NCBI GenBank assembly: GCA_963843115.1
Contig: CAWJJB010000007.1
Coordinates: forward strand, 2,203,282 to 2,267,281
DNA from: an uncultured Gemmatimonadales bacterium
GTDB taxonomy: Bacteria > Gemmatimonadota > Gemmatimonadetes > Gemmatimonadales > GWC2-71-9
Length of the DNA stretch: 64,000 nt
Direction of reading: 5' to 3'
The notes beneath the pieces were generated by a model that saw only the letters and a program-made list of their open reading frames with translations, did no database searches and was not told where the DNA came from. This document shows positions 25,248-44,261 of the stretch, piece by piece; positions within the stretch are counted from its first letter, which is position 1, and the number at the start of each line of letters is the position of its first letter. The position numbers and the translations under genes are program-made.

Positions 25248-25313
25248 AGGCGCCACCCGACATCAGCACACCTGCCATTGCGCATTGGGTGCGCCTGCCC
25301 CAGCGTACCAGCC

Positions 25314-27316: not shown

Positions 27317-27405
27317 CCGCGGACAGAGTCGGTATCGCTCGTCGGCGCCGGCCTCCCCCGCTTAGATTTCGCTGTTTGCCCGAATCGGCTCCTCCTTCCC
27401 CCTGA

Positions 27406-30012
27406 GTGTCAGTGGCTGATCAGCTCGAGCAACTGAAGGCGGCCCTCGCGGGACACTATGACGTCGAGCGCCTTCTGGGCCAGGGCGGCATGGCCAACGT
27501 GTACCTCGCCCAGGACCCGAAGCATCAGCGCCGCGTTGCCATCAAGGTGCTGAAGCCGGAACTCTCCGCCACCATCGGGGCTGAGCGTTTCCTGCGCGAG
27601 ATCCGTGTGGCCGCCCAGCTGCAGCACCCGAATATTCTCGGCCTCTACGATTCCGGCGATGCCGACGGCCTCCTCTACTACGTGATGCCGTTCGTCGAGG
27701 GGGAGTCGCTCAGGGACCGCCTGTCGCGCGAGCACCAGTTGCCGATCGAGGACGCCGTCCGGATCGTGCGCGAGGCCGCCGAGGCACTGCACTATGCCCA
27801 CGAGCGCAAGATTATCCATCGCGATATAAAGCCGGAGAACATCCTGCTCCAGGGCGGCCATGCCCTGGTGGCCGACTTCGGCATTGCGCGGGCCGTCGAG
27901 TCGGCCGGACAGAAGCTGACCGAGACGGGCATGGCGGTCGGCACGCCCCATTACATGAGCCCGGAGCAGTCGCTCGGCGGCGACATGGATGGACGCAGCG
28001 ATGAGTACAGCCTGGGATGCGTACTGTACGAATTGCTGGTGGGACAGCCGCCGTTCGACGGACCCAATGCCATGGCCGTGCTTGCGCGGCACTCGCTGGA
28101 ACAGGTCCCCAGCATGCAGGTGGTGCGGAACTCGGTTCCCGATGCCGTCGAGGATGCCGTGTTCCGGGCGCTTGAGAAGACGCCGGCCGATCGCTACCCC
28201 AGCATGAAGGGCTTCGCCGAGGCGCTTGGCGAAGCGGAGGCTGAAGCATCGCTGCTCCGGACGTCGGCCAGGCGAGCCAATACCCCGAGGACGCCGCAGC
28301 AGATTCCCATTTCCACCCGGCGCACGACGGCGAAGATCATGCGCCCAGGTGGTACGAGACAGACGCCGGTGCAGGAATTCCAGGATGAGGTCGAGCCACG
28401 GCCGCGACGGACCTGGCTCCTGACCGGAGCCGTGGTTGCTCTGCTCGTGGTGCTGGGTCTGTTTGGGATTCGGTATTACGGCGCTCGCGGAGGCGCGGGG
28501 GCCGTGGTGTCGGCCGCCACCGACGAGAGTGCCAAGCACATCGCGGTGCTCTACTTCGACAGCCCGGCCAACGACTCGCTCCGACTCCTCGCCGACGGCC
28601 TTACGGAGGGGCTCATCCGCGAGCTCACCCGGGTTCAGGGCCTGTACGTCATCTCGGCAAACGGTGTCGCCCAGTTCAGGGGCCAGGACACACCGCCGGA
28701 CAGCATCGGACGGATACTGAAGGTCGGCACTCTTGTCGAGGGAAGCGTCGAACAGTCCGGAAGCCGGGTACGCGTCAATGTGCGCCTGGTTGACGCGAGC
28801 AGCGGCGCACCGTTCGAGCGGGCGAGCTTCGAGCAGCCCGCTGGCAGCTATCTCACCCTCGCCGATTCGCTGTCCCAGCAAGCGGCGCTGCTCCTGCGGC
28901 AGCGACTCGGCGTTGAGATCCGGCTACGGCAGGAACAGCAGCGCACCAGGAATCCGCAGGCGTGGGTGCTGGTGCAGCGCGCCGAGGCGCTCCGGAAACA
29001 GGTCGATTCGCTCGCGCGGAACAATCCCGCAGCGGCGACCATCGCCCTCGATCAGGCCGACTCGCTCCTGGGTGCCGCCGTATTGCTCGATGCGACCTGG
29101 CCCGAGCCGCTCATCCTCAAGGGAGCGCTCGCCTCGCGCCGTGTCCGGCTCGTGAATCGGGATCCCATGCTTGCCGCGCCCATCCTTGCGCGAGGCCTGA
29201 GTTCCGTGGACCAGGCACTGACACTCGCTCCCCAGAATGCGGATGCGCTGTATCAGCGCGGCGACCTCCGGTACTGGCGCTGGATCCTCGGGCTGGAGAC
29301 GGACCCCACGGCGGCAAGACAGCTACTCGCGGCGGCACAATCGGACTTCGAGCAAAGCAAGTTGATCGACCCGTTGCAGGCGCAGGCCTGGGCATCACTG
29401 AGCCATCTCTACAATCAGAGTGGCAACTTCAGCGAGGTGCAGTTCGCGGCGAGGCGCGCCTATGAGGCCGATGCCTACCTCGCCAACATCGACGTCGTCA
29501 TCCACCGGCTTTTCCTGTCGTCGTACGACCTGGCCGACTTCACCGCCGCCTCGCACTGGTGCGAAGAGGGCGCGCGCCGCTTTCCCACCGACTACCGCTT
29601 TACACTCTGCCGCCTGCAGTTGCTGACCACGCGCGCCGGGCAACCCGACGTCGACCGGGCCTGGCGACTGCGCGACAGCGTGGCGGCCCTCGCCCCCAGG
29701 AACCAGCGCGAGTTCTGGACCCTGGCGTCGCAGATGACCGTGGCCAGCGTGCTCGCCCGCAAGCAACTGGGTGACAGCGCGAAGCGCGTCATCGCCCGGT
29801 CGCGCGGAACCCCCGACATCGACGGGAGCCGGGACCTGTTGTTCGAAGAGGCGGTGGCACAGACGGCGCTCGGCGACAAGGATGCCGCGTTCAAGGCGCT
29901 CATGACGTACTGGGCGGCCAACCCCGATCGACAGGCCGGGATGGTCGAGAATCCAGGATGGGAGTTCCAGCAGCTCACCTCGGACCCGCGGTGGGGAGGG
30001 CGCGCACCATAA
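27406..30012 (+). CDS. membrane Ser/Thr protein kinase with extracytoplasmic TolB-N-like and TPR region
   Basis: GQGGMANVY...AIKVL, HRDIKPENILL, DFGIARA. TM segment WLLTGAVVALLVVLGLFGI, followed by IAVLYFDS... and TPR-like helices. Confidence 0.85.
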   Translation: MSVADQLEQLKAALAGHYDVERLLGQGGMANVYLAQDPKHQRRVAIKVLKPELSATIGAERFLREIRVAAQLQHPNILGLYDSGDADGLLYYVMPFVEGESLRDRLSREHQLPIEDAVRIVREAAEALHYAHERKIIHRDIKPENILLQGGHALVADFGIARAVESAGQKLTETGMAVGTPHYMSPEQSLGGDMDGRSDEYSLGCVLYELLVGQPPFDGPNAMAVLARHSLEQVPSMQVVRNSVPDAVEDAVFRALEKTPADRYPSMKGFAEALGEAEAEASLLRTSARRANTPRTPQQIPISTRRTTAKIMRPGGTRQTPVQEFQDEVEPRPRRTWLLTGAVVALLVVLGLFGIRYYGARGGAGAVVSAATDESAKHIAVLYFDSPANDSLRLLADGLTEGLIRELTRVQGLYVISANGVAQFRGQDTPPDSIGRILKVGTLVEGSVEQSGSRVRVNVRLVDASSGAPFERASFEQPAGSYLTLADSLSQQAALLLRQRLGVEIRLRQEQQRTRNPQAWVLVQRAEALRKQVDSLARNNPAAATIALDQADSLLGAAVLLDATWPEPLILKGALASRRVRLVNRDPMLAAPILARGLSSVDQALTLAPQNADALYQRGDLRYWRWILGLETDPTAARQLLAAAQSDFEQSKLIDPLQAQAWASLSHLYNQSGNFSEVQFAARRAYEADAYLANIDVVIHRLFLSSYDLADFTAASHWCEEGARRFPTDYRFTLCRLQLLTTRAGQPDVDRAWRLRDSVAALAPRNQREFWTLASQMTVASVLARKQLGDSAKRVIARSRGTPDIDGSRDLLFEEAVAQTALGDKDAAFKALMTYWAANPDRQAGMVENPGWEFQQLTSDPRWGGRAP

Positions 30013-30134
30013 ACCATTGCGCCGTTGTGGCTTGGACGCCGCCCGCGCGGCACCAGAATGAGCCATCCTGCCTCGCCCACCTAGCCCAAACCAACGTCCC
30101 ACAATAACTTAGCTCCGCGCAAGCGTATAGACTC

Positions 30135-30163
30135 TTGACGGCAAGGCTTTTGCCAGCCATATC
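30135..30163 (+). promoter_or_regulatory. candidate sigma70-type promoter for the lipoprotein gene
   Basis: TTGACG (30135-30140), 17 nt, then CATATC (or TATCAT at 19 nt), in an AT-richer 190-nt intergenic island. Confidence 0.3.
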
Positions 30164-30205
30164 ATGCTCACACCTAGCAGTCTGGCCCCCAGGGAGATCC
30201 CCAAG

Positions 30206-31945
30206 ATGCGTCGCAGGTCGTTCCGCCCAGCACAGGCCCTCATTGCCATGATGCTCATCTTCGTGGCCGCCTGTTCCGACCAATCCACGGCACCACAGAC
30301 TCCCCAGACCACGCAGAGCCAGCCTGAGATTTCCGACCCGAGCCTCCTCCGGTATCCGACCGGGTGCAGCAAGGACGAGATCAACGCGCTGGTGAACGAC
30401 GTGTTCAAGAGGCCACTGGTCCGTGCGGCAGTAAAGATCGAGATCGCACTGTTCTTTGCGCTGAACCAGAGCGGCGCCAAGCCGCAGGCCAAGGCCAAGC
30501 TGATGGCGATCGCCGGCAAGGCCCTCGACGCCAGTGTCGGGGAGACGGATCCGGCGGTCCTGAAGCGCATCGCATCCTTTGTGTCTCTTCTCTACTGCGT
30601 CATCGGTGAACCGGCGCCCCCGCTCGACCTGGTGAATGGTGCCGCCCAGATCGTGAATCCCGGCGAAACGGCGACGGTCGGCGTACCCGACAAGGATCCC
30701 GGCTTCAATGGCAACCTGGTGGCGACCCAGGTGGTGAATCCGCCGGTGGCCACGCTGGTGAGCATCACGCCGTGCACGGTCGGCCTCGATACGCAGCTCC
30801 GCAAGACCGGCCCCTGCTACGACATCACGGCATCACCGGAGCTTCCGCCGGGGGCGCGGCTGGTGGGCGCATGCATCAACCTTCCATTCCCAGAAGGCGA
30901 CGTGAGGAATGAACGGATCCGCCTGGCGCACAACCTGGCGCCGAACAAGCCGGTGACCGTCGAGGGCAACGTCCGGTTCGGCAATATCGAGATCATTTCG
31001 CCGGGCAATGTCAGCCTGCAGCCACTGAGCCTGTCGTGCGTGCCGTCAGGAATCTCCTTCCTGAACAAGGTCATCGACATCGTACTGCCGCAGAAGCTGC
31101 TGGCCCGTGCGGCCACTGGCACCGGCGGCCGCGGTGGGCTGGCCAGCAACTACAGCCCGTTCGACGGTGTCGATCCGGTGTTGACCGTGACGGCAAACTC
31201 GGCCACGACGCAGGACGGCGCTGCCGGTGCCGCGGTGAGTGCGCCACCGTCAGTGCTGGTGAAGACCGAGGAGGGTGCGACGGTGGATAACGTCGCCGTC
31301 AGCTTCGTACCCACCACCGGCAGCGGCTCCGTGAGTGGCGGCAATCAGCTTACCAGCGGCGGCGTTGCCACCGTTGGCAGCTGGGTCATCAACGCCGGCA
31401 CGAACACCCTGGTCGCAACGGCGAGCACGCCGGGCCTGAGCTTCCTTGGCTCCCCGGTCGAGTTCACCGCCAACGGCGCCGGGCCGGTTCCCGGATTCGG
31501 TGCGCCGGGATACAGCTACTACACCACCACCGATCCGGCGAGCGCCCCTCCGGGCTGGCAGACGGCGAGCTTCCCTGATGGCTGGGCAACCGGTGCAGCG
31601 CCGTTCGGCTCGCTGACCTACTGCGCCAATGAGCCGTACAACCTGCCTCCCGTCGTGACGAACTGGGGCATCGGCACCCCGAGCTACGTGCTGATCCGGA
31701 AGGACTTCTTCGTGCCGAACGGCGAAGCGGCGAGCATCCAGGTTCTCGTGGACAACGACGTGCAGGTGTTCCTCAACAACGTCGACGTGAGTGGCGGCCT
31801 CAAGACCCACGAGAACTGCGCCAACGTCAATCCCGTGGCACCGATCAGCGTCACGCTCGCCCCGGGCATCAACAAGCTCGCGATCATTGCCAAGGACCGG
31901 GGCGGCCAGAGCTACCTGGACCTGCAGGTCACGCCGGCAGAATAG
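30206..31945 (+). CDS. hypothetical lipoprotein with Ig-like and C-terminal beta-sandwich regions
   Basis: MRRRSFRPAQALIAMMLIFVAAC lipobox, with AGGGAG SD. No catalytic motif recognised. Confidence 0.65.
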   Translation: MRRRSFRPAQALIAMMLIFVAACSDQSTAPQTPQTTQSQPEISDPSLLRYPTGCSKDEINALVNDVFKRPLVRAAVKIEIALFFALNQSGAKPQAKAKLMAIAGKALDASVGETDPAVLKRIASFVSLLYCVIGEPAPPLDLVNGAAQIVNPGETATVGVPDKDPGFNGNLVATQVVNPPVATLVSITPCTVGLDTQLRKTGPCYDITASPELPPGARLVGACINLPFPEGDVRNERIRLAHNLAPNKPVTVEGNVRFGNIEIISPGNVSLQPLSLSCVPSGISFLNKVIDIVLPQKLLARAATGTGGRGGLASNYSPFDGVDPVLTVTANSATTQDGAAGAAVSAPPSVLVKTEEGATVDNVAVSFVPTTGSGSVSGGNQLTSGGVATVGSWVINAGTNTLVATASTPGLSFLGSPVEFTANGAGPVPGFGAPGYSYYTTTDPASAPPGWQTASFPDGWATGAAPFGSLTYCANEPYNLPPVVTNWGIGTPSYVLIRKDFFVPNGEAASIQVLVDNDVQVFLNNVDVSGGLKTHENCANVNPVAPISVTLAPGINKLAIIAKDRGGQSYLDLQVTPAE

Positions 31946-32028: not shown

Positions 32029-32484
32029 CTATCCGGGACCGGCGCCGAGCGCCCGCAGCCGCCGGAGAACCCGTCGCTGGGAAGCTTCGTTTGACACGGC
32101 GAGGAAAATGGTGTCGTCTCCCGCCAGGGTGCCGATGATCTCGGTCCATGCCAGCCGGTCGAGCGCAATCCCCACCCGGTTCGCCTCGCCGGCAGGCGTG
32201 TGCACCACCACCAGCGCATCGCCGGCAGGTTCGGCCGTCAGCACCCCCTCCGCGATCCGAAGCTCGTCGGGATCGCGTACCCGTGTCGCCGCAGCAGACG
32301 CCTTGCGATACACCCCGTCCACCTTGGCGAGCCGCAACGACTTGATGTCCCGGCTGACCGATGACTGCGTCACCTGCCAGCCATCACTCGTCAGCGCGTC
32401 GGCCAGTTCCTCCTGCGTCCGCACAGCGCGCGTGCTGACCAGCTCGAGGATCCTGAGATGGCGCTTGCGCCGGTCAGCCGTCAT
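32029..32484 (-). CDS. argR: arginine repressor
   Basis: RTQEELADAL...VTQSSVSRDIKSLRL winged helix and GTLAGDDTIFLAV C-terminal motif. The ATG overlaps the argH stop (ATGA). Confidence 0.9.
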   Translation of the reverse strand: MTADRRKRHLRILELVSTRAVRTQEELADALTSDGWQVTQSSVSRDIKSLRLAKVDGVYRKASAAATRVRDPDELRIAEGVLTAEPAGDALVVVHTPAGEANRVGIALDRLAWTEIIGTLAGDDTIFLAVSNEASQRRVLRRLRALGAGPG

Positions 32485-33845
32485 CCCTGCCTGCGCCCTG
32501 CCAGCCGGAGCATCGCATCGTCGAAGCGCCGGCGTTCGGCTCGCCACCAGCGCCGCGACTGCGTGAGCCGCGCACGCGCGAGTCCGAGCTCGAGGTTCCC
32601 CACGCCGCCGGCACTCGTGCGGGCCGCGATGAGGTCGCGATCAGGGATGGCCGGCATCGCGACCCCGCGCTTGAGCTCCGCGGCCACGTCCCTGTAGGCC
32701 TCCCGGAACGGCTGACCCTCGCTGGAACGGCGCAACGCCTCATCCGTCGCGAGGATGTCGCCGCCGAGTGCCGCCCGGCCACGGTCACGATCGACCTCGA
32801 CCCGCGGCATCGCGATGATGAGCATGCGCAGCATCTCGTCGCTGAGCTCGATGCCGCGCATGAGCGGCGCCTTGAGGAACTGGAAGTCGCGGTGGTAGCC
32901 ACCCGGCAGGCCGGCCTTGAGCGCATGCACCGTGAACAGTGCACCCTCGACCAGCGCCGATCGGGCGCGCGTCAGCTCGAACAGGTCCGGGTTCCGCTTC
33001 TGTGGCATGATGCTGGATCCCGTGGCCAGGTCCACCGGGAGTCGCAGCCAGCCGAATTCCTCGGCGCTGTACAGGATCACGTCCGACGACAGCTTGGCCA
33101 TCTCGTGGCCCAGCTCGGTGCACCAGTGCAGCACTGCCGCCTCGAGCTTTCCCCGTGCGTTCTGCACCAGGCCCACGCTGTGGTCGATGTCGCCGAAGCC
33201 GAGCGCCCGTGCCGTCGCCCGACGATCGAGCGGAAGCGGAACGCCGTAGCCGGCCGCACTGCCCAGTGGGGATCGATCAAGCCGGCGCCAGAGGGTATCG
33301 ACACCCTCGATGGTGTCGAGCAGCCCCTCGGCGTACGCCGAGGCCCACACACCCGCCGAGGATGGCATGGCGCGCCGCTGGTGCGTGTAACCGGGCCACA
33401 GCGCCGTGCGGTTGGCCGCCGCGAAGTCGAGCAGCGTGGTCGCCAGCTCCGTGGCGCGCGCCTGCAGCGACAGCACGCGATCCTTGAGGTACAGGCGGAT
33501 ATCCACCGCCACCTGGTCGTTGCGTGACCGACCGGTGTGCAGCATCCCGCCGCTCCTGCGGTCGCGCCGGGTGAGCCAGAACTCCACCGCCGAGTGCACG
33601 TCCTCATGCTCCTCGCCGATGGCCAGCTGACCGGCATCCACCGCCCTCAGTGCGCCCCGCAGCAGGCGCTGCATGCGCAGGTGCGCGGTGGTACTGAGGA
33701 TGCCACTCTTGCGCAGGCCCTCGGCGTGGCCGAGGCTGCCGAGAATGTCCCAGCGCAGCAGTCGCGCATCCCATTCGCGATCATCCGCGACGGTGTACGT
33801 CAACAGCGTCTCGCTCGGAGCCGTTCCCCACAGGGACTTCTTCAC
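32481..33845 (-). CDS. argH: argininosuccinate lyase
   Basis: GSSIMPQKRNPD signature, 454 aa. GTG start at 33845. Confidence 0.9.
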   Translation of the reverse strand: MKKSLWGTAPSETLLTYTVADDREWDARLLRWDILGSLGHAEGLRKSGILSTTAHLRMQRLLRGALRAVDAGQLAIGEEHEDVHSAVEFWLTRRDRRSGGMLHTGRSRNDQVAVDIRLYLKDRVLSLQARATELATTLLDFAAANRTALWPGYTHQRRAMPSSAGVWASAYAEGLLDTIEGVDTLWRRLDRSPLGSAAGYGVPLPLDRRATARALGFGDIDHSVGLVQNARGKLEAAVLHWCTELGHEMAKLSSDVILYSAEEFGWLRLPVDLATGSSIMPQKRNPDLFELTRARSALVEGALFTVHALKAGLPGGYHRDFQFLKAPLMRGIELSDEMLRMLIIAMPRVEVDRDRGRAALGGDILATDEALRRSSEGQPFREAYRDVAAELKRGVAMPAIPDRDLIAARTSAGGVGNLELGLARARLTQSRRWWRAERRRFDDAMLRLAGRRQG

Positions 33846-33895
33846 GTCATCACGTCCTCACGTCCTCACGTCCTGTCATCACGCCCTCACGTCAG
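33843..33895 (-). repeat. tandem octamer array (sense AGGRCGTG) spanning the argE' stop to the argH start
   Basis: Plus strand: cacgtcat cacgtcct cacgtcct cacgtcct gtcat cacgccct cacgtcag. The first cac is the argH GTG start. The tca at 33892-33894 inside the last unit is the upstream stop. Confidence 0.85.
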
Positions 33896-34971
33896 TTTTC
33901 ACTCAGGTACTCCCTCGCCACGTCGGCATAGAACTGGCGCGCTTCCGTGACCTCGTGCAGGTCCACGCACTCGTCCGCCGTATGCGAACGCCGACTCGTG
34001 CCCGGGCCCACCTTGATCGTGTCCCGATCGTTGAGGAACACCCAGTCGGAGCACGTCGGGCTGCCGTAGCGCCCCGCCGCCGGCCGCACGCGACCAGCCA
34101 CTTCAAGCAGGCGTGAATGTGCCGGCGTTTCGCACGGCACGAGCCGCTGCGAGGTGACCACCACCTCGGACTCGAGTGCCGCCCGCAGCACCTCGCCGAT
34201 CTCGTCATGCGACCAACTCGGCGTGCTGCGGATGTCGAGCACCGCCTTGGCCATGGGCGGCGTGACGTTGCGACTGATGCCCGCCTCCACCATCGTCGGC
34301 GTGATGGAGACGCGACCCAGCACCGGGTGCGCCCGCTCCTGACAGAGCTCGGCCAGTCGGAGCAGGTCGCGCGCAAGGACAATGGCGGCGTTGGTGAAGG
34401 TGTCGCCGGCGGCGTACCCGGCATGCCGCTGGTCGCCACGTGCCACCAGGTCCACCATCATCAGCCCCCGCTGTGCGACGGAGAGTTCGAGATTGGTTGG
34501 CTCCCCCACGAGTGCCGCATCCACGGTGCCGACCGCCTTGAGCGCCTCGGGCATCGAGGTCTGCTTCGTCTCCTCGCCGAAGCCCAGGATCACCAGCAGT
34601 CGACCATGTGAAGGCCCGCCCGCATCCGCGACGTCACGGATCGCGCAGAGCATCGCCGCCACTGAGGCCTTGGCATCGCTCGAGCCGCGACCGTAGAGCC
34701 GCCCGTCCTCCACCACCGGCGTCCAGGGATCTCGGGTCCAGCCCTGCCCGGGGGGGACAACGTCGAGATGCGATACCAGCGCGAGCGTGGGGCCAGGCTT
34801 CCCCGCCCGCACCTCGACCCGCACTCCTGCCGCATCCCGTACTACATCCAGGCCCCACTCGCGCACCGTCGTCTCCACGTGACGTGCAATGACTTCCTCG
34901 TCGCCACTCACGGAAGGAATGGCGACGAGGTCGTGCAGCAGGGCAATCTCAGCCGGCGAGGTCGACGCCAA
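33892..34971 (-). CDS. argE: M20-family deacylase (ArgE/DapE-like; probable acylcitrulline/acylornithine deacylase)
   Basis: IPSVSGDEE, SHLDVVP and GSSDAKA motifs. Located in the arg operon. Confidence 0.75.
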   Translation of the reverse strand: MASTSPAEIALLHDLVAIPSVSGDEEVIARHVETTVREWGLDVVRDAAGVRVEVRAGKPGPTLALVSHLDVVPPGQGWTRDPWTPVVEDGRLYGRGSSDAKASVAAMLCAIRDVADAGGPSHGRLLVILGFGEETKQTSMPEALKAVGTVDAALVGEPTNLELSVAQRGLMMVDLVARGDQRHAGYAAGDTFTNAAIVLARDLLRLAELCQERAHPVLGRVSITPTMVEAGISRNVTPPMAKAVLDIRSTPSWSHDEIGEVLRAALESEVVVTSQRLVPCETPAHSRLLEVAGRVRPAAGRYGSPTCSDWVFLNDRDTIKVGPGTSRRSHTADECVDLHEVTEARQFYADVAREYLSEN

Positions 34972-35884
34972 GGTAGGTTGCCTTCTCCTTCCGGCCGACG
35001 ATCATCGTGCCGAGGCCGGCGCCGGTGAACACTTCGAGGAGCAGCGCATCATTGGCCCGGCCATCGATGATGTGGGTGCGCTCCACCCCGCTGGTGGCGG
35101 CACGGATGCAGGCCTCCACCTTGGGCCGCATTCCCCCCGCCAGCGCGCCGCTGGCCATGAGTGTGGTGAGGTCGTCCGGGTCCGCGAAGGTGACCAGCGA
35201 CGACGGATCGTTCCGGTCGCGAAGCACCCCTGGCGCCCCGGTCATGTAGATCAGCTTCATCGCCTGCAAGGCCACGGCAATCGACTCGGCCACGGTGTCG
35301 GCGTTCACGTTGTAGACATTGCCATCGTCGTCGCCCGCCAGGCTCGCAACAACCGGCACGAACCGCGCGTCCATCAGGGTGTTGAGCACCCGGGGATCGA
35401 CCCGGTCGATGTCACCCACGTGCCCGTAGTCCACCACGCGCGTCTTGCCAGCATCGTCGACCACCGTCACAGGTGGACGCCGATGTGCCGTGATCAGCTC
35501 GGCGTCGACACCCGACAGGCCAACTGCCTGCAGGCGGTGCTCGCGCAGTGACGCGAGGAGGTCCGTATTGAGCTGGCCGCCATAGACCATCTTGGCGACC
35601 TCGAGCGCCTGCTGGTCGGTAACCCGCCGGCCCGCTACGATCGTCGGCTCGGTGCCCAGCTTGCGACTCAACGCCGTGGCCTGCGGACCGCCACCATGCA
35701 CCACCACCAGGCGAATACCCAGGGACGACAGCAGCGCCAGCTGCGCGGCGGCCTGGTCGAGGGTGTCGGGGTCGCTCACCACGTCGCCACCCAGCTTCAC
35801 CACGAACACCTGGTCGCGGTATGCCCGCACGTAGCGGAGCGCACCCTTGAGGCCGGCAATACCCTTCGATGAATCGATCGTCAT
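34949..35884 (-). CDS. argB: acetylglutamate kinase
   Basis: VVKLGGDVV...VVVHGGGPQ. 311 aa with no appended GNAT domain. The ATG overlaps the argF' stop (ATGA). Confidence 0.9.
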   Translation of the reverse strand: MTIDSSKGIAGLKGALRYVRAYRDQVFVVKLGGDVVSDPDTLDQAAAQLALLSSLGIRLVVVHGGGPQATALSRKLGTEPTIVAGRRVTDQQALEVAKMVYGGQLNTDLLASLREHRLQAVGLSGVDAELITAHRRPPVTVVDDAGKTRVVDYGHVGDIDRVDPRVLNTLMDARFVPVVASLAGDDDGNVYNVNADTVAESIAVALQAMKLIYMTGAPGVLRDRNDPSSLVTFADPDDLTTLMASGALAGGMRPKVEACIRAATSGVERTHIIDGRANDALLLEVFTGAGLGTMIVGRKEKATYLGVDLAG

Positions 35885-36909
35885 CCCTGTTGCCCAGTTG
35901 AGGTCGCCAGCATTTCGAGGAGCAGTGCCCGCTGCGCGTGCAGCCGGTTCTCCGCCTGGTCCACCACCACCGAGGTCGGGCCGTCGATGATGTCATCGTC
36001 GAGCTCGACGTTGCGGCGCACCGGCAGGCAGTGCATCACGATGCCCTTGCCGCCGCGGGTCGACCGCAGCCGCTGGCTGGTGAGGCGCCAGTCGCGCAGG
36101 CCGGCGCGCATCTCGGCCTCCTCCTCGGGATGGTCGTGGTGCTTCACCGAGCCCCAGGACTTCACGTACACGGCGTCGGCGCCAACCAGCGCGTCGTCGG
36201 GATCATTGTTGATGTGGATCATGGCACCGCTGTCGCGCGCCAGCTGGCGCACCAGTGCCGTGTCCTCCGGATCGAGCTCATAGTCGTCCGGGCGCGCGAT
36301 CACCACCTCCATGCCCAGCATGGCCGCCGCGATCGCGGCACTCGCCGGCACCGCCGTGGGCAGGGCCTTGGGATGCCATGCCCAGAGGAGCACGAAGCGC
36401 TTGCCGCGTGGATCACCATCGAACTTCTCGCGCAGCGTCATCGCATCGGCGAGTCCCTGGCAGGGATGCCGCCGCGTCGACTCGAGGTTGATCACCGGCT
36501 TTTCGCAATACTCGGCGAACCGGTTGATCACCAGGTCCTGTCGCACCGTTTCCCAGGCGCCCGGGCGGGGAAAGGTGCGTACACCGAGCACGTCGGCATA
36601 CCGCCCGAGCACGCGGGCGGCGTCCTTGATGTGCTCCACGGTCGTGCCGTCCATCACCGCGCCCGGCTCCGTCTCCAGCGACCAGCTCCCCTTGCCCGGC
36701 TCCAGCACGATGCCGTGGCCGCCGTGCAGGAACATCGCGGCCTCGAAGCTGGTGCGCGTGCGCAGGCTCGGGTCCATGAACATCATCGCCATGATCTTCT
36801 TCTCGAGCCCGCCGGGGATCTCCCCCCGCTTGACCCGGTCGGCGAGGTCGAGGAGCGCCAGGCACTGGTCGCGACCCCAGGACTCCATGGAGAGGAAATC
36901 ACGCTTCAC
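35881..36909 (-). CDS. argF: N-acyl-ornithine carbamoyltransferase-like (argF' type)
   Basis: SLRTRTSFE instead of the STRTR of classical OTCase, plus HPCQ and HCLPVRRN. Overall resembles N-acetyl/N-succinyl-ornithine transcarbamylases. The GTG overlaps the upstream TGA. Confidence 0.8.
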   Translation of the reverse strand: MKRDFLSMESWGRDQCLALLDLADRVKRGEIPGGLEKKIMAMMFMDPSLRTRTSFEAAMFLHGGHGIVLEPGKGSWSLETEPGAVMDGTTVEHIKDAARVLGRYADVLGVRTFPRPGAWETVRQDLVINRFAEYCEKPVINLESTRRHPCQGLADAMTLREKFDGDPRGKRFVLLWAWHPKALPTAVPASAAIAAAMLGMEVVIARPDDYELDPEDTALVRQLARDSGAMIHINNDPDDALVGADAVYVKSWGSVKHHDHPEEEAEMRAGLRDWRLTSQRLRSTRGGKGIVMHCLPVRRNVELDDDIIDGPTSVVVDQAENRLHAQRALLLEMLATSTGQQG

Positions 36910-37686
36910 TTCGGCACCTCCAGCGTCGCATCCAGGAACTCCTTGAGCGCAAGGACGAATTCGTCCGGTCGGTCGAGCATCAGCCAGTGACTGGCTCCCG
37001 CCACCGGCACGATGTCGAGGTCGGGAACCTGCGCATGCAGGCTCATGGGAGAATCATTGGCAGCGTCCACGATGAGGCGCACCGGTCCGGGGTAGCGCAG
37101 AAGGAGGGCACGCGGATCGGTGGCGAAGAGCGCGGTGTACGCGCCGGCGAGCGTGGCACGGTCAGTAGCGGCCAGGCTGGCCAGCACCGCATCCCGCGTG
37201 CGGGGCGAGGCTCGCTCAAGGTTCGCCTCATACGCCGCCCGTACAAAGGATCCGTCCTCGTCCTGCAGTACCGTATCGATGAACGCCTCGAGGGTCGACA
37301 CCGGCTACCTGGTCGAAGGCGCCCGCCGGATCCACCAGTGCCAGCGCCAGCACGCGGCCCGGGGCCCGCGTCGCCACCGCCAGCGCCACCGTGGCGCCAA
37401 AGCTGTGTCCCACGAGCACGAAGCGCGCGAGGCCGAGCGAGTCGGCAACCTGAAGCACGTCGTCGACAAAGTCATCCAGCCCCGAATTGGCGAACGTCGC
37501 GGCCGCCGATGCGCCGTGGCCCCGCAGGTCGAGCGCGATGGCACGGTGCGTCTTGCGGAGTTCTCCCAGCATTTCGGTCCAGAACTCCGTTCGTCCGCCG
37601 AGGCTGTGGACCAGCAGGCAGGCAGGCTCGCCGGTGCCGCCGTCATCGACCGCAATGGGACCGGCCCTCCCCGTCACCTCGATCAC
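36906..37686 (-). CDS. alpha/beta hydrolase, interrupted by a +1 frame break near 37300 (ORFs 37228-37686 and 36906-37301)
   Basis: The N-part has LLVHSLGG and nucleophile elbow VGHSFG. The C-part has the catalytic His region AGASHWLMLDRPDEF. Neither half is a complete fold alone. Confidence 0.7.
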
Positions 37687-38819
37687 GCCAGCACCTCGCC
37701 AAGCCCGGACAACAGGAGGTTGGCCTCCGCCGGCGAGAATGACAGCGGCGGCAGCAGGCGCAGCACGTCGGGGTCGCTTGACGTGCCGGTGAGGATGCGG
37801 CGCTCGAACAGCGAACGCTGCACCGGCTGCGCCGGGACCGGGAGGCGCAGGCCCAGCAGCAGTCCATGCCCCTGCACTGCCAGTGCACCAAGCGCGAGGG
37901 CGCCCTCACGGAGCTGTTGCCCGACGCGAGCGGCATTGGCCGCGAGACCCTCGCGCTCAATGACGTCGAGCGTCGCGAGCCCGGTGGCGCAGGCGAGGGG
38001 ACCGCCGCCAAAGGTGCTCCCCAGGTCGCCCGTGCTGACGCCCTCGGCAAGGAAGTCGCCCACCACGACCGCTCCGATCGGGAACCCTGATGCCAGCCCC
38101 TTCGCCATCGTGACAGCGTCGGGTGTGACACCGTAGAACTCTGCCGCACTGAAGGCGCCGAGCCGGCCGACGCCGCACTGGATCTCGTCGAAGATGAGTG
38201 CCACGCCATGGCGCGAGCACGCTGCGCGTGCCGCCTCCAGGAAGGCGTGCGAACAGTCGCGAGCACCCGACATGCCCTGCACTGGCTCCACGATGAGCGC
38301 CGCCACCGAATCGTCGATGGCCCGCTCGAGCGCCTCGACGTCGTTGAATGGCGTCTTGAGCGAGAGCGGCATGCCGGCACGGCGCGCCCCCGCCTCATAC
38401 TTCGCCCCGTCGGTGACGGCGAGCGTTGCCACGGTGCGACCATGCCAGCCACCCGTCACCGAGACCACGAGCTCGCGACCGGTGCGCTTCCGGGCCAGCG
38501 CGAGGGCATTCTCATTGGCTTCTGCCCCGGAGTTGCAGAAAAAGATCTGGTCGAGCCCCACCGGCATGAGTGCGGCGATTCGTGCCGCGAGCAATTCCCG
38601 GTTCGGGTGCGGTAGCACGGTCGAATAGAAGATCAGTTGCGAAGCCTGCTCCGCAATCGCGCGCACGACGTGTGGGTGGCAATGCCCGGTGCTCGCCACC
38701 GCATGTCCACCGTACGCATCCAGCCAGCGGTGGCCATCGACGTCGATGATCCAGCTCCCCTCGCCTCTCACAGGCTGCACGGGAAACTGGGCGTAGACCG
38801 GCAACAGGGAACTCGTCAC
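37683..38819 (-). CDS. argD: acetylornithine aminotransferase
   Basis: Class-III aminotransferase, 378 aa (FDEIQCGVGRLG, TMAKGLASG). GTG start at 38819. Confidence 0.9.
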   Translation of the reverse strand: MTSSLLPVYAQFPVQPVRGEGSWIIDVDGHRWLDAYGGHAVASTGHCHPHVVRAIAEQASQLIFYSTVLPHPNRELLAARIAALMPVGLDQIFFCNSGAEANENALALARKRTGRELVVSVTGGWHGRTVATLAVTDGAKYEAGARRAGMPLSLKTPFNDVEALERAIDDSVAALIVEPVQGMSGARDCSHAFLEAARAACSRHGVALIFDEIQCGVGRLGAFSAAEFYGVTPDAVTMAKGLASGFPIGAVVVGDFLAEGVSTGDLGSTFGGGPLACATGLATLDVIEREGLAANAARVGQQLREGALALGALAVQGHGLLLGLRLPVPAQPVQRSLFERRILTGTSSDPDVLRLLPPLSFSPAEANLLLSGLGEVLA

Positions 38820-38841: not shown

Positions 38842-39864
38842 TCAACATGGAAATATCCCGCCACCCACCAGCCCCCGCCGCTCGTCGATGCCGAGCGCCA
38901 GGTTCATCGCCTGCACCGCCTGGCCGCCGGCGCCCTTTACCAGGTTGTCGATCGCGATCATCACCTGGACTTCCCGGCCATCGGCCGAAGGCACCGCGTG
39001 GATGTGGGCTTCATTCGTGCCGACCACGTGCGTGAGCTCCGGCGGCTGGTCCAGGATCCGGACGAAGGGACGGTCCGCGTACGCGCTTCGATACAGCTCC
39101 GCCGGTGCCCCGCCTGTCTCCGCCATCCTGGCATGCAGCGTCAGGTAGATCCCACGCACGAACGGTCCACTGTGCGTCATCAGGCGGGCCGACGCGTCCG
39201 CGCGCCCCGTCCACTTGCGCCAGCTGGTGAGCACCTCGGCCTCGTGCCGATGCCCCATGACGCCGTAGGCAAAGAGGTTGTGCGCTCGCGCCGGATGGTG
39301 CGTTGCAGGCCGCGGATGGACGCCGGCGCCGCTCGATCCCGTCACGGCAAAGAGGGCCGGCTCGATCCCGGCAATGCCGGCGAGTGGATAGAGGGCCAGT
39401 TGCGCCGCCGTCGCGAAACAACCCGGCGCCGCAAGCGCCGTGGCACCCTTCAGTCGGGCGCCCTCGACGTCAGCGAGACCGTAGCGAAACCGCGGCAGCA
39501 ACTCGGGCGATGGATGCGCGCCGTAGTACTGCGCATAGAGCGCCGGGTCCTGTACGCGAAAATCCGCCGCGATGTCGATCACCAGGCCGGGATTGCCGGC
39601 GAAGATGGCCGGCGCCAGCCGCGATGACTCTCCATGCTCGAGGGAGAGGAAGACCACATCACAGCCTTGCGCGGCATCCGCCGGCTCCATCGACACGAAC
39701 GTGCGATCCGTCAGCGCGCGGAGCTGGGGATGGACGTCGCCCACCGGCTTGCCCGCCTGGCTCCGGCTCGTCGCCACCCAGTCGGTGATGTCGGGATGGG
39801 AAAGGAGGAGACGGAGGAGCTCGCCACCGGCATAGCCCGCGGCGCCGATCACGGCTACGCGCAT
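38842..39864 (-). CDS. argC: N-acetyl-gamma-glutamyl-phosphate reductase
   Basis: MRVAVIGAAGYAGGELLRLL and active-site APGCFATA. Start trimmed to ATG 39864, 2 nt after the upstream stop. Confidence 0.9.
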   Translation of the reverse strand: MRVAVIGAAGYAGGELLRLLLSHPDITDWVATSRSQAGKPVGDVHPQLRALTDRTFVSMEPADAAQGCDVVFLSLEHGESSRLAPAIFAGNPGLVIDIAADFRVQDPALYAQYYGAHPSPELLPRFRYGLADVEGARLKGATALAAPGCFATAAQLALYPLAGIAGIEPALFAVTGSSGAGVHPRPATHHPARAHNLFAYGVMGHRHEAEVLTSWRKWTGRADASARLMTHSGPFVRGIYLTLHARMAETGGAPAELYRSAYADRPFVRILDQPPELTHVVGTNEAHIHAVPSADGREVQVMIAIDNLVKGAGGQAVQAMNLALGIDERRGLVGGGIFPC

Positions 39865-39866
39865 CG

Positions 39867-40955
39867 TCAGGCCGGGGTGAGCGCGTCCGCCGGTCGCGCC
39901 GCCTGCCATGCCGCCATCGAGGCCAGCACCACCTCCACCAGCTTCTCAGGCTCACGCCGGGCGTTGAATGCGGGGACGTTGAGTTCGGCGTTGACATAGT
40001 CGCGACCGACTTCGTTGTCCGTGGCGGGACCGGTGATCACCGTGATCGCGAGCCCATAGCGCTGCTCCATGAGCACCTTCGCGCCCCAGCAGCCCACCGG
40101 GTCGGGTGCCGCCATGACCCATGCAGCGCCTGCCGCCGCCAGCTCGGGATCGGCCAGGATGTCCTGCACCCCATATTCGCCCAGGATGCCGTCACCCAGC
40201 TCGGCCACGATCACGTCGGGCTTGCCCTGCGCGAGCCGGTTGAGGATGCCCTTGGCGCTCGACACGGTGACGCCCGGGTGGGTGGTCGCGATACCGATGT
40301 CGTTGAAGGTCAGCGCCGCACTGGCACCGGCATCGCGCATCGCCAGGGCATCGCGCATGAGCGACACACCGGTGAGCTTGGCGGCAGCCACCTTGAGCCC
40401 ACTCCGATACAGACCACGCACCAGCTCGGCGGCCGCGACCGTCTTGCCGGCGTTCATGCAGGTACCGGCGATGTACACCACCGGCGCGGAGCACTCGAGC
40501 ACCTCCGCCGTCGGCACCGACCGGTCCTTGATGTGCGCCGGGCGCCCCACCCGATCACCCAGTTCCGGGAAGGCCAGGATCGCGCCGAGCACATCGGCCT
40601 TGAATGGCGCGCCGATGTCCGGGTTGGCCGAGGTGCACTTGCCCAGGATGCCACCGAGGTTCAGTACCTCGATGACGTCGCCCACCGCGATGCGCGCCGG
40701 TACGATGCCGGCATAGCCCCGCAGGGCGCGGCGCGCGCCGAGGGTGCCGGCGAGCACGTCCCCGGCGCGGAGCGTCACCATGCGGCCGGACAGGTCCTCC
40801 ACCGAGTTGTAGGCGGCCTTGTCCTCCCGGATGCGCACCGCCAGCACGTATCCCTCCTGCGCCACGATCTGGTCGCCCACGATCACCTCGGTCGCCAGCG
40901 CGGCATTCCGGGTGGAAGACGAGATCTTGTCGAGCTTGACGCGCGTGGTGATCAC
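39867..40955 (-). CDS. uncharacterised two-domain protein: N-terminal beta-rich domain plus BioD/CobQ-like P-loop domain
   Basis: GTG 40955 overlaps the argG TGA (GTGA), with AAGGAG upstream. P-loop-like VVYIAGTCMNAGKTVAAAELVRGLYRSGLKVAAAKLTG and Walker-B-like DVIVAELGDGILGEY. No family recognised with confidence. Confidence 0.7.
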   Translation of the reverse strand: MITTRVKLDKISSSTRNAALATEVIVGDQIVAQEGYVLAVRIREDKAAYNSVEDLSGRMVTLRAGDVLAGTLGARRALRGYAGIVPARIAVGDVIEVLNLGGILGKCTSANPDIGAPFKADVLGAILAFPELGDRVGRPAHIKDRSVPTAEVLECSAPVVYIAGTCMNAGKTVAAAELVRGLYRSGLKVAAAKLTGVSLMRDALAMRDAGASAALTFNDIGIATTHPGVTVSSAKGILNRLAQGKPDVIVAELGDGILGEYGVQDILADPELAAAGAAWVMAAPDPVGCWGAKVLMEQRYGLAITVITGPATDNEVGRDYVNAELNVPAFNARREPEKLVEVVLASMAAWQAARPADALTPA

Positions 40956-42172
40956 AGGCTCTCCTTGGCGCCCCTGGCGCCCTGAACTCCAGCTCGCTCC
41001 GCCAGCAGCGACGGAATGGCGGCGATCCGCGAGAAATCCCGCGCCTCCGCACCGGTCCACAGACGGTTGTCCTCGCCATAGGTGGCGACGGACGGGTCCA
41101 TCATCGAGAAGGGACTCCGCGCCCCGGTGACACGCGTCCGCCCCGCGGAAAGCCGCACGCGCGTCTCACCCGTGACCCGCTGCTGCGAGCTGGTGAACAT
41201 CGCCTCGATGTCGCGCAGCGCCGGGTCGAAGTACTGCCCCTCGTGCAGCCGGTCGCCATAGAAGCGACCGAGCTGGTCCTTCCAGAACACCTGCCACTTC
41301 GTCAGCACCAGCTTCTCGAGCTCACGATGGGCCTGGATCAGCAGCAGCGCCGCACCGGCCTCGAAGCCGATGCGACCCTTGATGCCGAGGGCCGTCTCGC
41401 CCACGTGAATGCCGCGGCCGGCGCCGTAGGCGGCGCAGAGGTCGCCCAGCTGGTCCACCAAGGTGGCACCATCGAGCGCCACGCCGTCGATGGACAGTGG
41501 AATGCCCTGCTCCCAGCCGATGACGATCTCCCGGGTCGCGGGGGCATCCGCTGGCGGCTCGAAGAGCTCGTCGGGCGGGCCGGCCCAGGTATCGTGGGTC
41601 CAGCCACCGCCATACGTGGTGCCCCACAGGCCGCGGTTGATGCTGTACGCACTCGCCTTGGCCGGCACCGGAAGGCCGCGCGCCTCGAGGTACGCGATCG
41701 AGTCGGCCCGCTGGAGGTTTGCGTCGCGGATGGGAGTGAGGATCTGCAGCTCGGGAGCGAGCACCCGGAACGCCACGTCGAATCGCACCTGATCGTTGCC
41801 CGCCCCGGTCGATCCATGCGCCACGGCGCCGGCGCCCATCGCGCGGGCCGCCTCGATGACGGAAATGGCCTGCTGGGTGCGCTCGGCCGCGACACTCAGT
41901 GGGTAGACCTCGCCCCGGAGCACGTTGCCCTGGATCAGGTAGCGCACGAAGCGATCAAAGACTGCTGCCCGGGCATCCACCTCGTGGTGGCGTCGCGCGC
42001 CCACCGCCTCCGCCTGGCGCCGGATCACCGCCCGGTCCTCGGCGGTGCTGCCACCGGTATTGACGAACACCGTCTCCACCGCCCAGCCGTCATCGGCCAG
42101 CCGGGGCACGCAGTACGACGTATCGAGGCCGCCGGAGAAGGCCAAGGCGACGCGGGGCTCAGGAGATTGCAT
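40952..42172 (-). CDS. argG: argininosuccinate synthase
   Basis: AFSGGLDTS ATP-binding motif, 406 aa. Confidence 0.9.
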   Translation of the reverse strand: MQSPEPRVALAFSGGLDTSYCVPRLADDGWAVETVFVNTGGSTAEDRAVIRRQAEAVGARRHHEVDARAAVFDRFVRYLIQGNVLRGEVYPLSVAAERTQQAISVIEAARAMGAGAVAHGSTGAGNDQVRFDVAFRVLAPELQILTPIRDANLQRADSIAYLEARGLPVPAKASAYSINRGLWGTTYGGGWTHDTWAGPPDELFEPPADAPATREIVIGWEQGIPLSIDGVALDGATLVDQLGDLCAAYGAGRGIHVGETALGIKGRIGFEAGAALLLIQAHRELEKLVLTKWQVFWKDQLGRFYGDRLHEGQYFDPALRDIEAMFTSSQQRVTGETRVRLSAGRTRVTGARSPFSMMDPSVATYGEDNRLWTGAEARDFSRIAAIPSLLAERAGVQGARGAKESL

Positions 42173-42231: not shown

Positions 42232-43314
42232 CTACCAGTCCTCCGCCAGCGTCCGCACGAGTTGCGCGAGCGCCTGCACGTCCCGCAGGTCCACCACCTC
42301 CGCCGGCGAATGCGCATAGCGCAGCGGCCACGCGACCGGGACGTCGGGCACGCCCCACGCGCCGAACACCGAACCGTCGTTCCCCCCGTTGGTGGAGCCC
42401 ACCTGCAGCGGGATCCGGCGGCGCGCCGCCAGCTGCACCAGTGTGTCCACCAGGGCTGGCGGCGTCACGCTGCTGTTGTCCAGCGCCCGGGCCACGGCGC
42501 CCGACCCAAGTGCCACGTCGGCGAAAGTCTTGATCTCCAGGGGCGAGTCGGACGACACGAAGGTGTCCACCGCATGCACCCGCGCCGGCGACAGGCCCAG
42601 GGCATCGGCCACCACCCTCGCCCCTTCGAGACCGGTCTCCTCCCGTACGCTCCACACGAAGATCACCCGATGGCGGAGTCGCTTCGGGTCGAGCTGCCGA
42701 AGCGCCAGGACCAGCGCCGCGCAGCCCACGCGATCATCGAATGAGCGACCGGTAGCCCGGGTGCCGGCCAGCGGCACGAATGCCTTCGGCATGGTGAGGG
42801 TGTGACCCACCCGGACACCCATCCCCTCCACTTCCTGCCGGGAGGACACACCGATCGTGGCTCGCACCGGGGGCGGCGCGCGCCGCGGAGCGTCACCGAC
42901 GGAGTCGCGTGGCAGGAAGATCCCCGGGATGTCGCGATCGCCGGTGTGCACCAGTGCTGGCTGGGCCTCGAAGAGCGACAGGAAGAACCCGCCGCGCGGC
43001 TTGAGCTCGAGCGTGCCGTCATCCTCAATGCCGCCAATGACAAAACCGATCTCGTCAAGATGGGCCACGAACACCACCAGGGGTTCACCCTGCCCCGCCT
43101 CGATCAGCAGGTTCCCCGCCGAGTCGGTCGTGGGTCGCGCCCAGGCGGGCAGCATGCGCGTGACCGCGTCGCGCACCGGGCCTTCCATTCCGGAGACACC
43201 GTAGGTCTCGATCAGCGGCGCGAGGACGGTCCGTACGTCGTCAAGTGATGGCTGCTGGGCGGACGCCAGTGACGGAGGCAGGAACAGCGCGACAAGCACC
43301 ACCAGCCGGCGCAT
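42232..43314 (-). CDS. M42-family metallopeptidase with signal peptide
   Basis: MRRLVVLVALFLPPSLASAQ, then VSGMEGPVRD, VFVAHLDEIGF, SFDDRVGCAAL, SVREETGLEGA. Confidence 0.8.
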   Translation of the reverse strand: MRRLVVLVALFLPPSLASAQQPSLDDVRTVLAPLIETYGVSGMEGPVRDAVTRMLPAWARPTTDSAGNLLIEAGQGEPLVVFVAHLDEIGFVIGGIEDDGTLELKPRGGFFLSLFEAQPALVHTGDRDIPGIFLPRDSVGDAPRRAPPPVRATIGVSSRQEVEGMGVRVGHTLTMPKAFVPLAGTRATGRSFDDRVGCAALVLALRQLDPKRLRHRVIFVWSVREETGLEGARVVADALGLSPARVHAVDTFVSSDSPLEIKTFADVALGSGAVARALDNSSVTPPALVDTLVQLAARRRIPLQVGSTNGGNDGSVFGAWGVPDVPVAWPLRYAHSPAEVVDLRDVQALAQLVRTLAEDW

Positions 43315-44219
43315 CACTGGCCCGCCTCGATCCAGCGCGCCAGGCTCGTTCTCAGCGCCTCGGCGCCGGCGAGGGAGACCGTCTCCACGGTGGTCCATGC
43401 GTGCGCCACCGGCAGCAGCCATCCGTCGGGGGTACGCTGGGCGGAGCCCGGCGCTCCGGCGGCGCCGTCCACCAGGCGCTCCTCGGTGAAGGGTCCGAAG
43501 GTGCGCCGTACCGTGCGCAGGCCGCGCTGGGAAAGGTTCTGCTCCGTGACGAAGGCGATCACCACGGTGCCCGAGCGCGGCGAGACGTCGCGAGCAGCGA
43601 GCACCAGTGCAGCGCATGCCGCGCGGCGCCCCGCCATCGGCGCCGCGAGCAGGTCGCCGCCGTATCGAAGCGGCTGTTTAACGAGCGACACCGGCGTGAG
43701 CACACCCGCACCCAGGCCTGTCACTTCCTGCGCGGTGGCCGCACCGACATCCACCCGCGCGTCATCCACGTTGAAGGGCTCGTCCGCTGCCCCGTTGCGA
43801 CCGCGCGTGAGGTGAACGGAGCGCACCGCCACCACCCCCGGGACCGGACCCCGCCGCCCGTACAGCGTCACCCGATGACCCTCGAGCTGCTGGTCGAAGA
43901 GGGGCGACGGCCAGCGCCCCGGCGCACGACGCAGGGTGAGGTAACCATCCGCTTCCACCTCTCCCACTACCCAGCCCGGCTCGTCGAGCGGACAGGCCAG
44001 CAGGCGGCGCGGCGAACCCGTGCCGAGCACCAGCACGGCGCTGCCCGACCGGTCGCGTGTCGATTCGGGAAGCAGGTTGATGAGGGTGTCGACGAACGCC
44101 TGCTCGAATCCCGTCACCGCGGTGATGCCGGCGAGGCGTTCGACGAGCAGGGACGACGGAGTCGCCTGGGCCAGCAGCGGCGATGCGACGAGGAGCGGGA
44201 ACAGAAAGAAAAGGCGCAT
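43314..44219 (-). CDS. M42-like paralogue with degenerate metal/catalytic motifs, signal peptide
   Basis: MRLFFLFPLLVASPLLAQ. Aligned motifs are changed: AHLDE to ACPLDE, DDRVG to MAGRRA, REETG to TEQNL. The stop overlaps the downstream ATG by 1 nt. Confidence 0.6.
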   Translation of the reverse strand: MRLFFLFPLLVASPLLAQATPSSLLVERLAGITAVTGFEQAFVDTLINLLPESTRDRSGSAVLVLGTGSPRRLLACPLDEPGWVVGEVEADGYLTLRRAPGRWPSPLFDQQLEGHRVTLYGRRGPVPGVVAVRSVHLTRGRNGAADEPFNVDDARVDVGAATAQEVTGLGAGVLTPVSLVKQPLRYGGDLLAAPMAGRRAACAALVLAARDVSPRSGTVVIAFVTEQNLSQRGLRTVRRTFGPFTEERLVDGAAGAPGSAQRTPDGWLLPVAHAWTTVETVSLAGAEALRTSLARWIEAGQ

Positions 44220-44261
44220 TACCAATGGTAATGCGCCGAACTCACGCCGATACAAGGCGAC

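Follow-up and report, generated by a model that had tools for sequence, protein, structure and literature searches.

We propose that gene X, a 362-amino-acid open reading frame (ORF) at 39867-40955 on the minus strand of a 64-kb window of a Gemmatimonadales genome (the window is the whole stretch of DNA analysed here), encodes a two-domain candidate N-acyl-L-glutamate synthase, probably an N-succinyl-L-glutamate synthase. It would be unrelated to the GNAT fold and would replace ArgA/ArgJ in the first committed step of arginine synthesis. We put the probability of this reading at about 0.6. It is supported by the hole that the operon leaves in the pathway, by the position of X homologues in arg operons at all of 80 loci, by the tight coupling of X to argG and argC, by a specificity signature in the neighbouring carbamoyltransferase ArgF' and by the P-loop fold of X.

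A first-pass annotation of this DNA had already suggested a non-GNAT route to N-acyl-glutamate, and this part of it is kept here as the best reading in view of the operon, ArgF' and a preprint prediction; the acetyl group is now less likely than succinyl because of a valine in ArgF'. The preprint, from 2026, predicts without experiments that the family of the hypothetical protein A0A127FCT3 (Steroidobacter) is an N-succinyl/acyl-glutamate synthase. The core idea is thus already in that preprint, which limits the novelty of the finding on X.

Gene X and its junctions with argG and argC

Counting the stop codon, gene X spans 363 codons, and its product has 362 amino acids. Its GTG start (40955-40953) overlaps the argG stop codon TGA (40954-40952) in the context ctGTGAtc, and a Shine-Dalgarno sequence, AAGGAG (40961-40966, minus strand), lies 5 nt 5' of this GTG within the 3' end of argG. 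At the other end of the gene, only 2 nt separate the stop codon TGA (39869-39867) from the ATG of argC (39864). A longer ORF of 397 amino acids, starting at 41060, was dismissed because the N-termini of 53 homologues match the GTG at 40955, with the consensus MVxTTRVRLDRISS. The mean column identity among 54 Gemmatimonadales homologues is 81%. Judged by its sequence, gene X is real and conserved.

The ORF, its overlap with argG, the AAGGAG, the 2-nt gap before argC and the peptides quoted in the first-pass annotation were all found again in the sequence. Thus, VGDQIVAQEGYVLAVRI (residues 26-42) and IAVGDVIEVLNLGGILGKC (residues 89-107) are both located in the translation of X, AGTCMNAGKT...KLTG corresponds to residues 163-196, and DVIVAELGDGILGEY corresponds to residues 247-261. 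The BioD-type nucleotide loop and the EGxG-like motif that had been described are likewise present, as the P-loop GTCMNAGKT and as ELGDG.

The operon lacks a known gene for glutamate N-acylation

On the minus strand, the genes follow the order argG - X - argC - argD - (alpha/beta hydrolase) - argF' - argB - argE-like M20 - argH. The argininosuccinate synthase gene argG (40952-42172) was recognised by Pfam and TIGR00032, argC (38842-39864) by TIGR01850 at 330 bits, and argF' (35881-36909), for an N-acylornithine carbamoyltransferase, by NF003384 at 391 bits. Profile matches identified argD (37683-38819) as an N-acylornithine aminotransferase gene, the argE-like gene (33892-34971) as that of an M20 deacylase (N-acylcitrulline/ornithine hydrolase), and argH (32481-33845) as the argininosuccinate lyase gene. 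The N-acylglutamate kinase gene argB (34949-35884) encodes 311 amino acids, in which AA_kinase covers residues 26-274 only; the protein matches the kinase portion alone of bifunctional ArgA/ArgB models, and no fused GNAT or N-acetylglutamate synthase (NAGS) domain was found on it.

The genomic scope of the analysis was the 64-kb window together with other loci of up to 21 kb. No GNAT protein or ArgJ was found in the arg operon or its ten flanking genes, and the first-pass description of an arg operon lacking argA and argJ stands for this region. The products of the flanking genes are M42 peptidases, protein kinases, MarR, XdhC, a hydrolase and proteins of the glyoxalase and beta-lactamase folds. 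Since one enzymatic step, the N-acylation of glutamate, is left without a gene in the operon, and X is the sole conserved gene without an assignment, X is proposed to be the N-acyl-L-glutamate synthase.

Operon context across genomes

In every one of the 80 genome loci retrieved, an X homologue lies directly upstream of argC within an arg operon. These loci were found with a narrower alignment, which biased them toward homologues of at least 53% identity (range 53-90%), and the bias was offset by contig look-ups of ten distant representatives (31-46%). The 80 loci belong to about six phyla (Gemmatimonadota, Myxococcota, Acidobacteriota/Thermoanaerobaculia, Planctomycetia, Elusimicrobia and 'Deltaproteobacteria'), and their usual gene order is argG-X-argC-argD-argF'-argB-argE-argH. 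At four loci from Myxococcota/'Deltaproteobacteria' (L071, L075, L078 and L079), X comes first, and the gene order is X-argC-(argD)-argB-argE-argG-argH. No argF' was detected at these four loci, and their argG and argH share just ~33% identity with those of the window, with the X-argC pairing kept.

The contigs of two of the ten distant representatives were too short to show context. Five others (P0198, P0178, P0239, P0161 and P0305; 31-46% identity) are in arg operons, that of P0161 with argR. The first-pass annotation would have counted a location mostly outside arg contexts against its reading; homologues were found in arg operons at all 80 loci and, in addition, in these five distant cases. 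The remaining three (P0213, P0183 and P0141; 32-41%) lie outside arg operons, beside RimK-family alpha-L-glutamate ligases that score above the TIGR00768 cutoff.

The RimK-linked loci (L081:6984-12316, L083:8001-13260 and L088:267-2378), two of which are on archaeal contigs, place the X homologue next to one to three RimK-family alpha-L-glutamate ligases; at L083 the genes for the homologue and the ligase have 4 nt in common. At one locus, the context also includes an AstE/AspA/DoeB-like N-acyl-amino-acid deacylase and a C39-like peptidase fused to a mechanosensitive-channel domain. The archaeal RimK-linked proteins form a subgroup of their own with 40-43% mutual identity, in which all conserved residues of the family are kept. 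This gene set resembles the N-acetylaspartate/N-acetylaspartylglutamate (NAA/NAAG) enzyme set of animals, and the RimK and deacylase neighbours fit a family acting on, or making, N-acyl acidic amino acids.

The ArgF' signature and the acyl group

The window ArgF' matches Xanthomonas N-acetylornithine carbamoyltransferase (AOTCase) with an E-value of 1e-86, compared with 1e-50 for Bacteroides N-succinylornithine carbamoyltransferase. Its best single PDB match is 3l06, the E92V mutant, and alignment to 3kzc and 3l06 places a Val (residue 91) where wild-type Xanthomonas AOTCase has Glu92. Among 67 ArgF' proteins encoded beside X homologues, this position is Val in 61, Pro in two, Ile in two, Ala in one and Arg in one, with no Glu at all, and the sole Arg belongs to a poorly aligned ordinary ornithine carbamoyltransferase. 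The ArgF' of L092, an archaeon-labelled locus to which we return below, has Thr.

The GapMind papers cite Shi et al. (2007) for the finding that Ala, Pro, Ser or Val at the Glu92 position gives specificity for N-succinylornithine. The Val found here in place of Glu thus makes succinyl the most likely acyl group, and the pathway is probably the N-succinyl variant. By the same residue, the NCBIfam name of NF003384 (N-acetylornithine carbamoyltransferase) may be a systematic misnaming when applied to ArgF' proteins encoded next to X.

Family extent and sequence matches

A search with X gave 1824 matches in a 90%-clustered database, all of them 'hypothetical' and mainly from Gemmatimonadales; no Steroidobacter entry was found among the named matches. 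At 50% identity, 1403 clusters match the family at E<=1e-3, of which 170 are below 1e-30, and members occur in at least 593 species-level genomes. Neither Pfam nor NCBIfam has a model for the family, and none of 60 diverse members scores above any Pfam or NCBIfam cutoff, in agreement with the first-pass annotation, which could give X no family name.

X itself has no Pfam family above threshold and only DUF1611_C and MobB below it; the sub-threshold Pfam matches of X and its relatives taken together (DUF1611_C, MobB, CbiA and AAA_26) fall in the P-loop domain described below. The match to PF07755 (DUF1611_C), with an E-value of 9e-4 and 19.1 bits against a cutoff of 25, covers residues 150-193 only, and weak matches to this model occur in 14 of the 60 members. 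NCBIfam models gave only fragments of MobB, CobQ and BioD (bioD E 0.065, cobQ E 0.088); X and all members examined are below the cutoffs of TIGR00347, TIGR00313, PF13500 and PF01656, and the NCBIfam DgcN model has no match to X at E<=1. Neither Pfam nor NCBIfam revealed a GNAT (Acetyltransf) domain in X or any match to residues 1-150. Against PDB sequences, phmmer found nothing for X, and the family profile found P-loop segments of FtsY, BioD and MobB only, with 7XRJ and 2OBN (DgcN/DUF1611) not among the entries found by this profile search.

Two domains and their conserved residues

The AlphaFold2 model of full-length X (predicted local distance difference test score, pLDDT, 84.7; predicted TM-score, pTM, 0.83) consists of two domains. 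The N-terminal domain, residues ~1-150 (40506-40955, minus strand), is all-beta and, when residues 1-150 were modelled alone, reached a pLDDT of 94.8; Foldseek found no significant match in the PDB for this domain, the best being the LexA C-domain at E 0.23. The C-terminal domain, residues ~155-350 (39906-40493, minus strand), is a predicted SIMIBI-class P-loop domain, as judged from the model, Foldseek and the sub-threshold Pfam matches. The first-pass annotation was right about a beta-rich N-terminal part and overestimated its extent, which had been given as ~190 amino acids and is ~150 in the model, with the P-loop domain beginning at ~155.

The Foldseek neighbours of the X model include GTPases of the signal recognition particle (SRP) type, BioD (1dts), HypB, MeaB and DUF1611 (2obn), at E-values from 4e-6 to 1e-4, with 1dts at 2e-5 and 2obn_B at 5.9e-5 (rank 26); 7XRJ is absent from the best 50 of 127 matches (E<=1e-3). 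The TM-score of these neighbours is ~0.35 relative to the query, so that the likeness concerns the core of the P-loop domain only. Together with the profile fragments, these matches bear out the earlier description of X as a BioD/CobQ (SIMIBI)-type P-loop protein.

Residue conservation was read from the 60 diverse homologues, which have 30-54% identity. The Walker A motif or P-loop, GTCMNAGKT (residues 164-172; 40440-40466, minus strand), has the spacing of GTDTEVGKT in BioD, and within it G170 and K171 are invariant and T172 is present in 59 of 60. The KLTG motif (40368-40379, minus strand) contains the invariant K193, the putative counterpart of Lys37 of BioD (KPVxSG) by motif order rather than by superposition. 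In AELGDGILGEYG (40170-40205, minus strand), E252 is conserved in 59 of 60, and by sequence and conservation this motif is Walker-B-like and similar to E115-GAGG of BioD. The (near-)invariant residues of the P-loop domain are thus G170, K171, T172, K193, D202, D219, E252 (in ELGDG) and D285, and those of the N-terminal domain are S13, G35, E53, R75 and P86.

On reading the sequence, no [NTS]KxD guanine-specificity motif was seen in the P-loop domain, and X did not show the Cys/His motif with which G3E GTPases bind metal. A G3E metallochaperone or an SRP-like GTPase was ruled out as an identity for X by the lack of an [NT]KxD motif and of a metal motif.

Proposed mechanism and competing explanations

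We infer the reaction, acyl group, donor and individual residue roles of X as follows. The BioD/DUF1611-like P-loop domain would bind a phosphate-bearing cofactor (GTCMNAGKT, with K193, D202, D219, E252 and D285 conserved), and the novel beta-rich N-terminal domain (S13, E53 and R75) would close over the site and position L-glutamate, the amino group of which X would acylate. By analogy with DgcN, the donor would most likely be an acyl-CoA (succinyl-CoA), the phosphates of which the P-loop would hold, and R75, E53 and S13 are candidates for binding the carboxylates of glutamate or of the succinyl group. The acylated product, most likely N-succinyl-L-glutamate, would then pass to ArgB, ArgC, ArgD, ArgF', ArgE, ArgG and ArgH, all encoded in one operon.

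Several observations weigh against a synthase that replaces ArgA in this way. The absence of argA, argJ and a short NAGS was read locally, from the operon and ten flanking genes of a 3.5-Mb genome. The link to DgcN/DUF1611 is weak: PF07755 reaches 19 bits against a cutoff of 25, the NCBIfam DgcN model does not match, 2obn ranks 26th in Foldseek behind SRP GTPases and BioD, 7XRJ is outside the top 50, and the N-terminal domain of X is unlike that of DUF1611 and has no PDB match. Moreover, part of the family, the RimK-linked subfamily, has no arg linkage. The preprint on the family is a prediction, with no experiment for any member, and X was placed in the preprint family by matching descriptions, not by sequence comparison.

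A further point of this kind comes from L092, a Woesearchaeota-labelled metagenome-assembled genome (GCA_016192905.1), the operon of which has both a GNAT gene and an X homologue (46% identity). The GNAT protein has 157 amino acids (6193-6666, plus strand), its gene lies 124 nt upstream of argG, and it shows sub-threshold likeness to NF005921 (short NAGS), NF005840 and the NAGS domain of ArgH(A). A GNAT gene and an X homologue occur together at this one of 95 loci, and L092 is possibly a counter-example to a simple replacement of ArgA.

Among the competing explanations, the one that survives best differs in the donor. X would be, as the first-pass annotation preferred, an ATP-dependent BioD/CobQ-type ligase, which would convert free succinate (or acetate) to an acyl-phosphate on the P-loop and transfer the acyl group to L-glutamate with no acyl-CoA involved. 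BioD, CobB/CobQ, PyrG and PurA form C-N bonds via phosphorylated intermediates. The closest sequence families of X are BioD, CobB/CobQ, CbiA and MobB, its GTxxxxGKT loop has exactly the BioD spacing, and Foldseek places BioD (1dts, E 2e-5) ahead of DUF1611 (2obn). Moreover, the invariant Walker A Lys and K193 and the nearly invariant Thr and E252 (59 of 60 each) are the residues expected for Mg-nucleoside triphosphate chemistry. However, these family matches are all below thresholds and cover mainly the P-loop segment, and neither nucleotide specificity nor hydrolysis can be read from the sequence. DgcN (EC 2.3.1.312), the sole characterised glutamate N-acylating enzyme of comparable fold, is reported in papers citing it to use acetyl-CoA. 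We regard an ATP-dependent ligase as rather unlikely.

A broader form of this idea would make the X family a new mechanistic class, in which a novel beta domain joined to a BioD-like P-loop domain would form N-succinyl-L-glutamate from ATP-activated free succinate, and the RimK-linked archaeal paralogues would make N-acyl-Glu/Asp for ligase products, similar to NAA/NAAG. We consider this speculative and, taken as a whole, unlikely.

The second explanation leaves the first step to a gene elsewhere and makes X an accessory NTPase, which might serve the M20 ArgE as a metallochaperone, act as a scaffold or regulate the pathway in response to arginine, for example. The Foldseek neighbours HypB and MeaB (metallochaperone/accessory NTPases) and the SRP GTPases would agree with such a role, as would the short-NAGS-like GNAT alongside X in the L092 operon, and other NAGS types were judged at locus scale, not genome-wide. 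Nevertheless, X has neither an NKxD/TKxD guanine motif nor the G3E metal motif, and the preprint's reference genome retains the gene yet lacks ArgE. Homologues were never found together with ArgA homologues in the preprint, the co-occurrence with a GNAT gene is limited to one of 95 loci, and the operon is otherwise short of exactly one enzymatic step. For the regulatory or scaffolding role, which the first-pass annotation had offered as an alternative, there is no specific support, and we hold an accessory function to be improbable.

Finally, X might act on an arginine-pathway intermediate by exchanging its acyl group, by a salvage or repair step, or by joining glutamate to a different acid. 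Such a role could be suggested by the members beside RimK-type glutamate ligases outside arg operons and by an N-terminal domain that matches no known structure, but all steps after N-acylation are encoded, the known N-succinyl pathway needs no extra step and the arg linkage spans 31-100% identity, which makes a different reaction very improbable.

Neighbouring genes in the window

The alpha/beta-hydrolase gene between argD and argF' (36906-37686, minus strand) is a lineage-specific insert and no part of the conserved operon. A 1-nt insertion near 37306 splits it into two overlapping frames, which would reflect either a pseudogene or a sequencing error; an intact ORF of ~260 amino acids is present in the two closest genomes (L001 and L002) and nowhere else. 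This hydrolase was ruled out as the missing ArgA, being frameshifted in the window and found in these two genomes only. A LysW/ArgX-type carrier pathway was also ruled out, on the grounds that ArgF' is a small-molecule N-acylornithine carbamoyltransferase and that the operon has no LysW or ATP-grasp gene.

Directly upstream of argG and on the same strand (42232-44255, minus strand) are two paralogous genes of M42-family peptidases, the longest ORFs of which overlap, and this pair is syntenic upstream of argG in ~26 Gemmatimonadales loci. Downstream of argH, on the opposite strand (24147-31945, plus strand), are genes for an XdhC-like protein, two Ser/Thr protein kinases and a protein of beta-lactamase fold, as well as an ORF of 593 amino acids with no Pfam match.

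Implications

When metabolism is reconstructed from genomes, the first step of arginine synthesis is repeatedly left as a gap. If the X family is not taken into account, Gemmatimonadota, many Myxococcota, Acidobacteriota, Elusimicrobia and other uncultured lineages (at least 593 species genomes) would be scored as arginine auxotrophs. If X is the N-acyl-L-glutamate synthase proposed here, it would be a clear case of a P-loop enzyme displacing a GNAT, and the N-succinyl arginine pathway would extend well beyond Bacteroidetes. Moreover, a family with no Pfam or NCBIfam model, an N-terminal domain with no structural relative and a choice between acyl-CoA and ATP as cofactor is a target for biochemical and structural work.

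Comparison with known systems

The preprint places homologues of A0A127FCT3 almost without exception in arg operons, with argB, C, D, F', G and H and in some cases argE, and never in one genome with an ArgA homologue. It gives the predicted structure a weak likeness to DgcN, the D-glutamate acetyltransferase (7XRJ, Foldseek E 1.4e-7), and reports Ala, Pro, Ser or Val at position 92 in 90% of the neighbouring ArgF' proteins. Since the descriptors that gave a clear answer for X, the arg-operon context and the ArgF' residue, both hold, X is very probably a Gemmatimonadales member of this family. Both proteins are hypothetical and bound to arg operons, and both lie near an ArgF' of the A/P/S/V type; a weak fold likeness to the DUF1611/DgcN class is seen for X through 2obn, with 7XRJ outside the best 50 Foldseek matches. 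Steroidobacter has no argE, whereas an M20 argE-like gene is present in the window operon. The division into two domains, the novel N-terminal domain and the RimK-linked paralogues, all described here for X, are absent from the preprint; these features, together with the lack of a PDB match for the N-terminal domain in the Foldseek search, the set of conserved residues, the wide spread of the family and the co-occurrence with a GNAT gene, appear to go beyond it.

DgcN (Yu et al. 2023, ISME J) is described in papers citing that work as a D-glutamate N-acetyltransferase (EC 2.3.1.312; DUF1611 family; PDB 7XRJ) that uses acetyl-CoA. As proposed for X, it N-acylates glutamate with a non-GNAT fold, and it shares with X a C-terminal domain with a BioD-like P-loop. 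In contrast to X, it acts on D-Glu, is catabolic and transfers an acetyl group, and X is below the PF07755 threshold and has an all-beta N-terminal domain. X resembles BioD, CobB and CobQ in the GTxxxxGKT spacing of its P-loop, in a Lys that follows strand 2 and in a motif rich in Glu and Gly that follows strand 3, but the matches are far below cutoffs, X has an extra beta domain of 150 amino acids, and the substrates are unrelated.

The GNAT synthases (ArgA, short NAGS and the Cabys_1732/BT3761 type) share with X the proposed position in the pathway, whereas their fold is unrelated. Within this group, the GapMind papers have BT3761 of Bacteroidetes as the enzyme proposed to make N-succinylglutamate for an arg operon of the succinyl type that contains argF'. 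X would thus stand to the GNAT synthases as a non-orthologous displacement.

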